NCBI GenBank assembly: GCA_003971905.1
Contig: RSEE01000064.1
Span: forward strand, 186,001 to 250,000
Source of the DNA: Moniliella sp. 'wahieum'
Lineage: Eukaryota
Length of the DNA: 64,000 bases
Reading direction: 5' to 3'
Position numbers and translations under genes: made by a program
Shown: piece after piece, positions 23,999 through 25,200 of the stretch
Layout: every line of letters begins with the position of its first letter
How positions within the stretch are numbered: the first letter of the stretch is position 1
Notes under the pieces: generated by a model
Told to the model about the DNA's origin: nothing
The model's database searches: none
The model's input: the letters and a program-made list of their open reading frames with translations, nothing else

Positions 23999-25200
23999 TT
24001 AGTTGAAGTTGTTGTGGTCTCTCCACCAGAGGCCACGTTGAGCACACCATCGAGATGTTGGTCTGAGGCTTGCTGGGAGCCGGTGCCTGCGGGCCTGGAA
24101 GTTGTTGGTGGTCTCGCCGAAGGGCGTCAACGTTGAGCACGCCATCGAGGATGTTAGTCTGAGGCTTGCTGGGAGCGGTGCCTTGCGGGCCTGGAAATTG
24201 TTCTCAATGTCCCCGCCCAGCACCCACGTTCACCAGGCCATCGAGGATGTTGTCGCGCTTCGACTGCTGGAAGTGTGTTTCACCTCCCCCCCCAGAGCAC
24301 CCACGTTGGCCACGCCATCAGGATTTGACGGCGGAGGGTTGGAAGTTGTTGTTGATCTCTCTCCAAGGGCACCCACGTTCAGCAAGCCATCGAGGATGTT
24401 GTCGCGCTTGGACTGCTGGAAGTTGTTGTTGATCTCCCCATCCAGAGCACCCACGTTGGCCACGCCATCAAGGATGTTGTCGCGCTTGGATTGCTGGAAG
24501 TTGTTGTTCACCTCTCCCTTCAGCGCACCGACATTGACCACGCCATCGAGGATTTGACGGCGGGAGGGTTGGAAGTTGTTGTTGATCTCTCCTTCCAGTG
24601 CACCCACGTTCAGCACGCCATCGAGAATGTTGTCGCGCTTGGATTGCTGGAAGTTGTTGTTCACCTCCCCGCCCAGAGCACCGACATTGACCACGCCATC
24701 GAGGATTTGACGGCGGGAGGGTTGGAAGTTGTTGTTGATCTCTCCTTCCAGTGCACCCACGTTCAGCACGCCATCGAGAATGTTGTCGCGCTTGGATTGC
24801 TGGAAGTTGTTGTTCACCTCCCCGCCCAGAGCACCGACATTGACCACGCCATCGAGGATTTGACGGCGGAGGGTTGGAAGTTGTTGTTGATCTCCCCGCC
24901 CAGAGCACCAACGTTCACTAGGCCATCGAGGATGTTGTCGCGCTTGGATTGCTGGAAGTTGTTGTTCACCTCCCCTTCAGGGCACCGACATTGGCCACGC
25001 CGTCGAGGATATTGTCACCCTTGGATTGTTGGAAGTTGTTATTGATCTCTCCTCCCAGGAGACCGGCGTTGATCAAACCGTCAAGGATGTTCTGACGACG
25101 GAGGTGAGCAGGACGTTGGTTGCGGACAGGCTCGGCCTCAACGGAAATTGCCAGAGTAAGGACGGCGGCCAGGGGTAGCGAACGTAGTGGTGAACTTCAT
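23999..25200 (-). CDS. Secreted Kex2-processed repeat protein (KEP) with 14 peptide cores
   Basis: Signal peptide MKFTTTFATLAAVLTLAISVEA after correcting one indel. Pro-segment ends RR. Repeats are (DN/Q)ILDG(V/L)xNVGALxGE(I/V)NNNFQ(Q/P)S followed by KR or RR. Stop at 23999-24001. Confidence 0.9.
24001..25100. repeat. Coding tandem repeat, 75/78-bp units forming a 153-bp higher-order dimer
   Basis: GGAAGTTGTTGTT(G/C)A and CCATCGAG(G/A)AT recur every 75-78 bp. Confidence 0.95.

Follow-up and report, generated by a model that had tools for sequence, protein, structure and literature searches.

A candidate Kex2-processed repeat protein gene with fourteen tandem units and an unfamiliar core peptide in a Moniliella contig

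Fungal Kex2-processed repeat proteins (KEPs) are defined by a signal peptide, no membrane span, and at least three repeats that are parted by KR, RR or KK and make up at least 15% of the length; the survey that gives this definition counts 1193 KEPs across 226 species, their motifs ranging over 3-352 amino acids (aa) and their repeats numbering 3-129 (PMC6339444). Rep1 of Ustilago maydis has 652 aa and 12 repeats of 34-55 aa, and is described as being cut into 10 small peptides and one large fragment, which form an amyloid in the wall (PMC3133707, PMC4617103). Rsp1 of the same fungus is smaller (260 aa, 11 repeats of 18 or 21 aa) and has repeats that are described as hydrophilic, and the repeat domain of Hum3, with repeats of 31-36 aa, is followed by a hydrophobin domain (PMC4617103). 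Here we describe a gene with 14 tandem units, hereafter the repeat gene, in a stretch of 64,000 nucleotides (nt) of Moniliella sp. 'wahieum' (assembly GCA_003971905.1, contig RSEE01000064.1, positions 186,001-250,000 of the forward strand; hereafter the window, numbered from its first letter). We regard it, with modest confidence, as a lineage-specific KEP gene of an Ustilaginomycotina fungus, presented in an indel-rich assembly.

The repeat gene lies on the minus strand and runs from an ATG at 25200 to a stop at 23999. Its 14 units, anchored on their ILDG codons, carry cores that encode ILDGxxNVGALxGExNNNFQ. The initial annotation of this DNA had placed 14 cores between these two positions, and both Tandem Repeats Finder and the ILDG anchoring recovered the array there, with the ATG and the stop exactly at the two positions given; the two cores that it quoted as examples occur letter for letter in an intact open reading frame (ORF) at 24230-24847. 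Tandem Repeats Finder reported a period of 78 (11.3 copies, score 918) and one of 153 (5.0 copies, 88% matches, score 1018), as well as a period of 96 at the 3' end of the gene (2.3 copies, 24033-24251). Units 1 to 13 measure 78, 77, 74, 78, 75, 78, 75, 78, 78, 72, 77, 96 and 95 nt, and unit 14 runs to the stop. Unit 4 has the same sequence as unit 6, and unit 5 the same as unit 7. Of the 1202 nt of the gene, about 90% belong to the array (24002-25088). When the window was scanned with GARRTNAAYAAYAAYTTYCA, a degenerate 20-nt motif for E(I/V)NNNFQ, it matched 11 times with at most two mismatches, always on the minus strand between 24096 and 25049, against a chance expectation of 0.02, and the same scan found no second copy of the core motif elsewhere in the window. 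The features of the gene, all on the minus strand, are as follows.

25351-25358, minus strand: TATA-like box TATATAAA, 151-158 nt upstream of the ATG, read in the sequence; putative function
25134-25200, minus strand: start codon (ATG at 25200-25198) and signal-peptide-like N-terminus, from three-frame translation
25089-25133, minus strand: short pro-segment EPVRNQRPAHL-RR, then QN, with the first dibasic site; in frame with unit 1
24860-25088, minus strand: units 1-3 (78, 77 and 74 nt), units 2 and 3 each one base short; unit 1/unit 2 junction KG
24230-24847, minus strand: longest intact ORF, 205 aa; units 5-9, preceded by most of unit 4 and followed by the first part of unit 10, where it runs out of frame
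24249-24397, minus strand: units 10-11, with four one-base frame breaks; RR and KR junctions readable in local frames
24002-24248, minus strand: units 12-14, a variant C-terminal block with six frame breaks, ending NNFN-stop
23999-24001, minus strand: stop codon TAA in the frame of the last unit, from the sequence and three-frame translation

The frame that encodes the repeat peptide has the best codon usage of the six frames (0.158 bits per codon, compared with 0.032 or less), and its GC content at third codon positions is 0.71, compared with 0.73 in verified genes of the window. Five distinct intact units were compared over a 20-codon core. The ratio of nonsynonymous to synonymous divergence (dN/dS) was 0.09-0.33 in all 10 pairs, while the synonymous divergence (dS) ranged from 0.18 to 1.68 and exceeded 0.9 in six of them. 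Variation within the core is confined to exchanges among V, L, I and A and to a single position occupied by G, E, K or D. Because dN/dS is low while dS is near or above 1, the core peptide itself is under purifying selection: judged by their silent sites the units are old copies, yet their peptide is almost unchanged. In multi-copy peptide precursors old duplicates keep the same peptide, whereas solenoid domains usually let surface positions drift. The low dN/dS between units appears to be the signature of a precursor whose units are its products.

The description of the precursor that follows depends on frame corrections. The N-terminus reads MKFTTTFAT in one frame and continues in the next frame as a hydrophobic stretch ending in ISVEA; no start codon was found upstream in the array's own frame. 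An intron behind this frame change was ruled out, as the two readings lie only about 10 nt apart. A signal peptide and a pro-segment had both been claimed for this gene; the ATG, the stop and a pro-segment ending in RR are present, whereas the putative signal peptide appears only after the frame is corrected. KR or RR stands at 11 of the 12 junctions from pro-segment/unit 1 to unit 11/unit 12, the exception being unit 1/unit 2, which reads KG. Two junction types alternate, NNNFQQS-KR/DN and NNNFQPS-RR/Q (the slash marks the presumed cleavage point); the linkers have diverged (SKR-DN and PSRR-Q), with the basic pair kept. The unit 12/unit 13 and unit 13/unit 14 linkers start with ARK or ARR, are Pro-rich and end in PSKPQTN, with no clear [KR]R site; the cores of units 12-14 read ILDGxxNV...E(N/T)NNF, and the protein ends in NNFN. 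Kex2 sites around all 14 cores, as first proposed, are thus present along most of the array but missing from the unit 1/unit 2 junction and from the last two linkers, and fewer than 14 free peptides are predicted. Cutting at [KR]R followed by trimming is predicted to yield about 9 peptides of 23-24 aa, a double unit from units 1 and 2, and a C-terminal piece of about 90 aa. The Kex2-type sites are followed by DN or QI, and none by XA or XP, the STE13 signature.

The intact ORF holds five complete cores of 23-24 aa bounded by KR or RR. Their net charge is -1 to -4 and they are rich in N (19.5%), G (13.6%), V (11.9%), L (10.2%) and Q (8.5%). They lack Cys, Tyr, Trp, His, Met and Arg, and a single Lys is the only basic residue outside the junctions (1 of 118 residues). 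These values agree with the first description of the cores as Cys-free, acidic and rich in N and G. The suggestion that an aliphatic patterning makes them surface-active fared less well: among the four distinct cores, the alpha-helical hydrophobic moment was 0.26-0.35 (p 0.02-0.17 against shuffled sequences) and the beta moment was not significant (p 0.07-0.50), so neither is clearly above the shuffles. By eye, the readable frames show no N-glycosylation sequon, no glycosylphosphatidylinositol (GPI)-like tail and no Ser/Thr-rich stalk, nor any hydrophobic stretch beyond the N-terminus, and hence no membrane span.

Homology searches were run with the 205-aa ORF as the query. Six Pfam families appeared at E <= 1, all under their cut-offs, with no stretch passing alone and no leucine-rich repeat (LRR) family among them; NCBIfam gave sub-threshold noise only, and PDB sequences gave no match at E <= 1. 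A phmmer search of 1.84 billion protein representatives, a library built from public genomes (smut-fungus proteins were seen only in a related collection), returned 14 matches at E <= 0.001, of which none reached E <= 1e-10. On inspection each of the 14 proved to be an unrelated repeat protein; LRR arrays, a coiled-coil-like array and a MORN-like array are among them. A word-indexed search of longer proteins (360-2000 aa) had no hit at E <= 0.001 among 8000 scored candidates, and the ESM Atlas gave no usable match (recognition score 966). Pattern matches were found in JGI metagenome contigs (81) and in prokaryote genome contigs (56), and none was confirmed, by tblastn in the case of the former. 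The core motifs were not found in the supplements of PMC6339444 and PMC7329392 either, which carries little weight as the rows seen there give species, count and accession without sequences. A full-text literature search for the core strings brought up one unrelated kiwifruit paper only. The absence of relatives from Pfam, NCBIfam, PDB, the protein representatives and the two contig collections agrees with the earlier statement that the core was not recognised in known examples of such precursors.

How far this absence reaches depends on the sampling of the lineage. For a fragment of the mevalonate diphosphate decarboxylase encoded in the window, the best named matches are from Tilletia maclaganii (62% identity) and Meira miltonrushii (60%), and two Logan proteins match it at 82% and 77%. 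For housekeeping proteins, relatives of about 80% identity (loci P0015, P0016, P0135 and P0136) are present as short Logan contigs only, and the nearest named genomes reach about 60% identity for one of these proteins and about 45% for the second. Because the lineage is poorly sampled, claims of uniqueness for the repeat gene are limited.

Following the repeat motif through the gene by three-frame translation required 13 frame switches, 10 of the -1 type (one base missing) and three of the +1 type. One falls within the putative signal peptide, where four C follow one another, one each in units 2 and 3, two each in units 10 to 13, one at the unit 13/unit 14 boundary and one in unit 14; the central 618 nt contain none. 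The initial annotation had presented the gene as seen after correction of single-base indels, and it does become readable after these 13 corrections, although as given it is not one open frame. Along the tracked frame of about 400 codons there is no in-frame stop codon, and the broken units are no further from the intact units than the intact units are from one another, with no excess of substitutions.

Housekeeping genes of the same window are broken as well. The mevalonate diphosphate decarboxylase gene (10821-12157, minus strand) shows two frame changes when relatives are aligned to the window by tblastn, with break coordinates that overlap or abut (11752/11752 and 11294/11303), leaving no space for an intron. 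Four frame changes appear in the acetoacetyl-CoA synthetase gene (37100-39323, minus strand) against a Violaceomyces protein, and a relative with about 80% identity at either end reads straight through them. Together these are six frame errors in about 3.5 kb, five of them one-base deletions. Pfam profile coordinates point to further contiguous shifts in the VPS9 domain, where profile position 49 ends at nt 2535 and the match continues at nt 2538 in another frame, and in the galactose-oxidase E-set domain, the pyridoxamine-phosphate oxidase and the AMP-binding domain. Their positions, where located by profile coordinates, are listed here.

About 2535: contiguous frame shift in VPS9
About 17942-17969: contiguous frame shift in the pyridoxamine-phosphate oxidase gene
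About 48657-48686: contiguous frame shift in a glyoxal/galactose-oxidase-like gene

With one-base frame errors, mostly deletions, occurring about 1.7 times per kb of housekeeping coding sequence, this assembly should be polished before any gene is called from it. Most of the breaks in the repeat gene are probably consensus errors of the assembly too, because they share the deletion bias of the housekeeping genes, leave no in-frame stop and do not fall in units that are more diverged; such errors are probably worse where diverged tandem units confuse the alignment of reads.

To obtain a view of the fold, the 205-aa ORF was modelled with AlphaFold2 from the single sequence. The model is all-beta (mean predicted local distance difference test, pLDDT, 69.2; predicted template modelling score, pTM, 0.65), with strands of about 20 residues whose connecting loops are exactly QQSKRD and QPSRR. 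The best VIA-align match was a Ca-dependent beta-helical antifreeze protein (3p4g_A, Z 13.0, root-mean-square deviation (rmsd) 2.1 over 154 residues), followed by curli CsgA (8c50_A, Z 12.9, rmsd 9.5; 8enq_A, Z 10.8); SufD-type helices, autotransporter and tailspike beta-helices (Z 10-12) and Candida Awp adhesin domains (Z 10.3-10.7) were matched as well. The model hints at a beta-solenoid in which every unit forms one rung and the exposed loop between rungs carries the dibasic site, an arrangement that would fit an uncut solenoid and single-rung peptides stacking after cleavage alike. Prediction of a complex of four copies of a 51-aa two-unit piece scored 0.02 and 0.01 against a mark of 0.32, which is evidence neither for nor against association.

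Compared with the described systems, the repeat gene falls within the motif-size and copy-number ranges that the survey reports for KEPs (PMC6339444), with a core sequence that is new. Its assignment to the fungal Kex2-processed repeat architecture, made in the initial annotation, agrees with the number of repeats, the KR and RR junctions and the share of the gene that the repeats occupy, but depends on the frame corrections. With Rep1, as described in the parts of the literature cited above, it shares the subphylum, a signal sequence (putative here) followed by tandem repeats parted by Kex2 sites, the lack of a STE13 signature (PMC6339444), and a larger last part, the large fragment in Rep1 and the C-terminal block free of clear cleavage sites here. 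It differs from Rep1 in size and layout (about 400 aa and 14 units of 25-26 aa, the last ones 32-33 aa, compared with 12 repeats of 34-55 aa) and in the amphipathicity of its peptides, which is not clearly above that of shuffled cores; Rep1, compared by description only, shows no similarity among the 14 phmmer matches at E <= 0.001. Rsp1, a secreted protein whose tandem repeats have putative Kex2 motifs between them, is the closest in scale, and Hum3, likewise secreted, also has tandem repeats with putative Kex2 motifs but carries a hydrophobin domain that the repeat gene lacks, as far as these proteins are described in PMC4617103. Neither Pfam nor phmmer found a sequence relative of the Rsp1 or Hum3 type, the comparison again being one of descriptions. 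We place the repeat gene outside the Rep1 family; it would work like a KEP and possibly like a repellent. Curli CsgA resembles it in its N/Q/G-rich repeats and in the modelled beta-solenoid with a strand-turn-strand rung per repeat; however, the structural match is loose (rmsd 9.2-9.5 Å), PDB sequences show no sequence similarity, and the five repeats of CsgA stay together in a single uncut chain, whereas a predicted protease site flanks each rung in the repeat gene. Alpha-factor-like pheromone precursors would be expected to carry STE13 dipeptides where the repeat gene has DN or QI. The five complete cores have no Tyr and no DUF3328/UstYa gene was found among the ORFs searched in the window, so the gene is not of the type of the dikaritin precursors of ribosomally synthesised and post-translationally modified peptides.

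We propose that the product of the repeat gene is a pre-pro-protein of about 400 aa, with a signal peptide, a 13-aa pro-segment ending in RR and the 14 tandem units. In the late secretory pathway a Kex2-type protease would cut after each KR or RR, a Kex1-type carboxypeptidase would trim the basic pair, and about 9 near-identical acidic peptides of 23-24 aa would be released. They would take two forms, DN-ILDGxxNVGALxGEINNNFQ(P/Q)S and Q-ILDGVVNVGALxGEVNNNFQQS, and the N-terminal Gln of the second could cyclise. Left over would be the double unit 1-2 and a larger uncut piece of units 12-14, comparable to the large last fragment of Rep1. As to function, we favour extracellular self-assembly, at less than even odds, in which each unit would form a beta-arch rung and the rungs would stack into cross-beta fibrils, in the wall or on the surface, in the manner of a repellent. 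Chaplins would be a functional analogue. Several observations weigh against the proposal. The signal-peptide-like N-terminus is joined to the rest by way of one frame correction. The density of breaks, about 11 per kb (13 in about 1.2 kb), is about six times that of the housekeeping genes, and their uneven spread, clustered outside the central 618 nt, could point to a decaying locus. The weak phmmer matches are solenoid-type repeat proteins, LRR proteins for example, and would equally suit an uncut folded repeat protein, and the amphipathicity of the cores is not significant against shuffles. The AlphaFold model is of low confidence, with no alignment behind it; Foldseek against PDB gave no match at E <= 0.001, and a Z near 13 is common for repeats according to VIA-align's own warning.

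The main alternative to self-assembly is that the released peptides are diffusible signals or antagonists (hormone-like, effector-like or antimicrobial) and not a structural coat, which we consider possible but somewhat unlikely. The survey describes most KEPs as lacking a known function and several as induced in interactions; it ties a class of 9-24 aa to alpha-type pheromones, and the peptides predicted here, at 23-24 aa, would stand at the upper end of that class (PMC6339444). Coprinopsis KEP knock-outs are reported to have no detectable phenotype, and their authors suggest a role in biotic interaction (PMC9769878). The weak amphipathicity of the cores would suit such a role too. On the other hand, the sites are not followed by XA or XP, by which the survey recognises hormone-like KEP peptides (PMC6339444), and the N/Q/G-rich, beta-prone composition points to aggregation. 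The cores, being acidic, without a net positive charge and free of Cys, Trp and Tyr, also differ from typical antimicrobial peptides. Nor were tailoring genes seen nearby: DUF3328/UstYa, tyrosinase and methyltransferase domains did not turn up in the ORFs covered, which were 82 of the 126 that reach 150 aa in the window and, at 18.2-32 kb, 93 that reach 65 aa; frameshifts could hide a gene.

It is also conceivable, if unlikely, that the locus is a pseudogene or a KEP gene in decay, with real frameshifts that have killed or shortened it and an intact middle that stems from recent duplication or homogenisation of a 153-nt segment. The excess of breaks over the housekeeping genes of the same window would then be genuine. 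Their clustering at the edges of the array, the usual site of divergence in tandem arrays, and the identity of units 4 and 6 and of units 5 and 7, which suggests a young middle, would fit as well, and the break in the signal peptide would abolish secretion. Yet the spectrum of the breaks resembles that of the clear assembly errors in essential genes (one-base deletions in 10 of 13 and five of six cases, respectively). Thirteen real indels should have brought many substitutions and some stops, whereas roughly 400 codons are free of in-frame stops and divergence in the broken units does not exceed that in the intact ones. The additional errors could plausibly come from consensus calling where tandem units have diverged.

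Less probable in our judgement is an uncut secreted repeat protein with a beta-solenoid-like fold, for instance a wall protein or one similar to adhesins or ice-binding proteins, in which KR and RR are merely residues of surface loops. The AlphaFold model, with one rung per 25-26-aa unit and its resemblance to beta-helical proteins, agrees with such a protein, as do the LRR-type and other repeat proteins among the weak phmmer matches. Conserved G and N are typical of solenoid turns and Asn ladders. However, all core positions are conserved between units despite saturated synonymous divergence, and the basic pair, with Arg last, is kept in two otherwise different linkers. No capping region was seen by eye, the 13-aa pro-segment standing at one end and the NNFN of the last unit at the other, and the readable parts show no sequon, Ser/Thr-rich stalk or GPI-like tail. 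The Pro-rich linkers of different length in the last three units would better suit beads on a string, and Pfam matched neither an LRR family nor any other repeat family.

Returning to the KEP proposal, we also considered a bolder version, which we judge improbable, in which the gene would encode a pre-segmented functional amyloid: a solenoid of the curli or HET-s type, with one rung per 25-26-aa unit, diced by Kex2 at every loop between rungs, the rungs stacking again outside the cell into cross-beta fibrils. Such an amyloid would be an independent, sequence-unrelated peptide coat that works like the repellents, from an unsampled Ustilaginomycotina lineage. The amyloid idea draws only on composition and on the single-sequence beta-solenoid model. 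The unit boundaries, the dibasic sites and the predicted solenoid loops do agree with one another, which makes self-assembling single-rung peptides a concrete hypothesis. If the gene is intact and its product processed, it would add a sequence-orphan peptide family to the KEPs from a poorly sampled branch of the smut-fungus subphylum, in which only Rep1, with its wall amyloid, has a demonstrated KEP function. The type of gene is probably ordinary and the peptide probably new.

Coding on the plus strand was rejected for its lower codon-usage scores and its lack of start, signal or stop logic. Two antisense ORFs on that strand, at 24491-25045 (184 aa) and 24102-24557 (151 aa), are open through the periodicity of the array and carry a risk of miscalling.

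The neighbours of the repeat gene are housekeeping genes, namely those of an inorganic pyrophosphatase (about 22.0-22.4 kb), Fcf1 (18.5-19.0 kb) and a DXD glycosyltransferase (about 32.2 kb), and no Rfam family was found across the window. The region upstream of the gene (25600-31500, about 6 kb) is poor in ORFs and has a GC content of 0.49-0.54, compared with about 0.60 elsewhere; as an intergenic region it is unusually long for a compact basidiomycete yeast genome. It contains no ORF of at least 150 aa, no Pfam match among ORFs of at least 65 aa and no Rfam match, and no repeats were found at 25300-31700.

At a distance of 24 kb from the repeat gene is a glyoxal-oxidase-like gene (48500-50520, minus strand) that combines a Glyoxal_oxid_N domain with a galactose-oxidase E-set domain. 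The genes up-regulated on rep1 deletion in U. maydis include one for a glyoxal oxidase (PMC3133707); the proximity of the two genes here is probably a coincidence. At 58700-59771 on the plus strand, the low-affinity iron permease profile is matched by two neighbouring ORFs that lie in different frames; their profile ranges, 19-53 and 10-73, overlap, and the pair may represent a tandem duplicate or another frameshift artefact.

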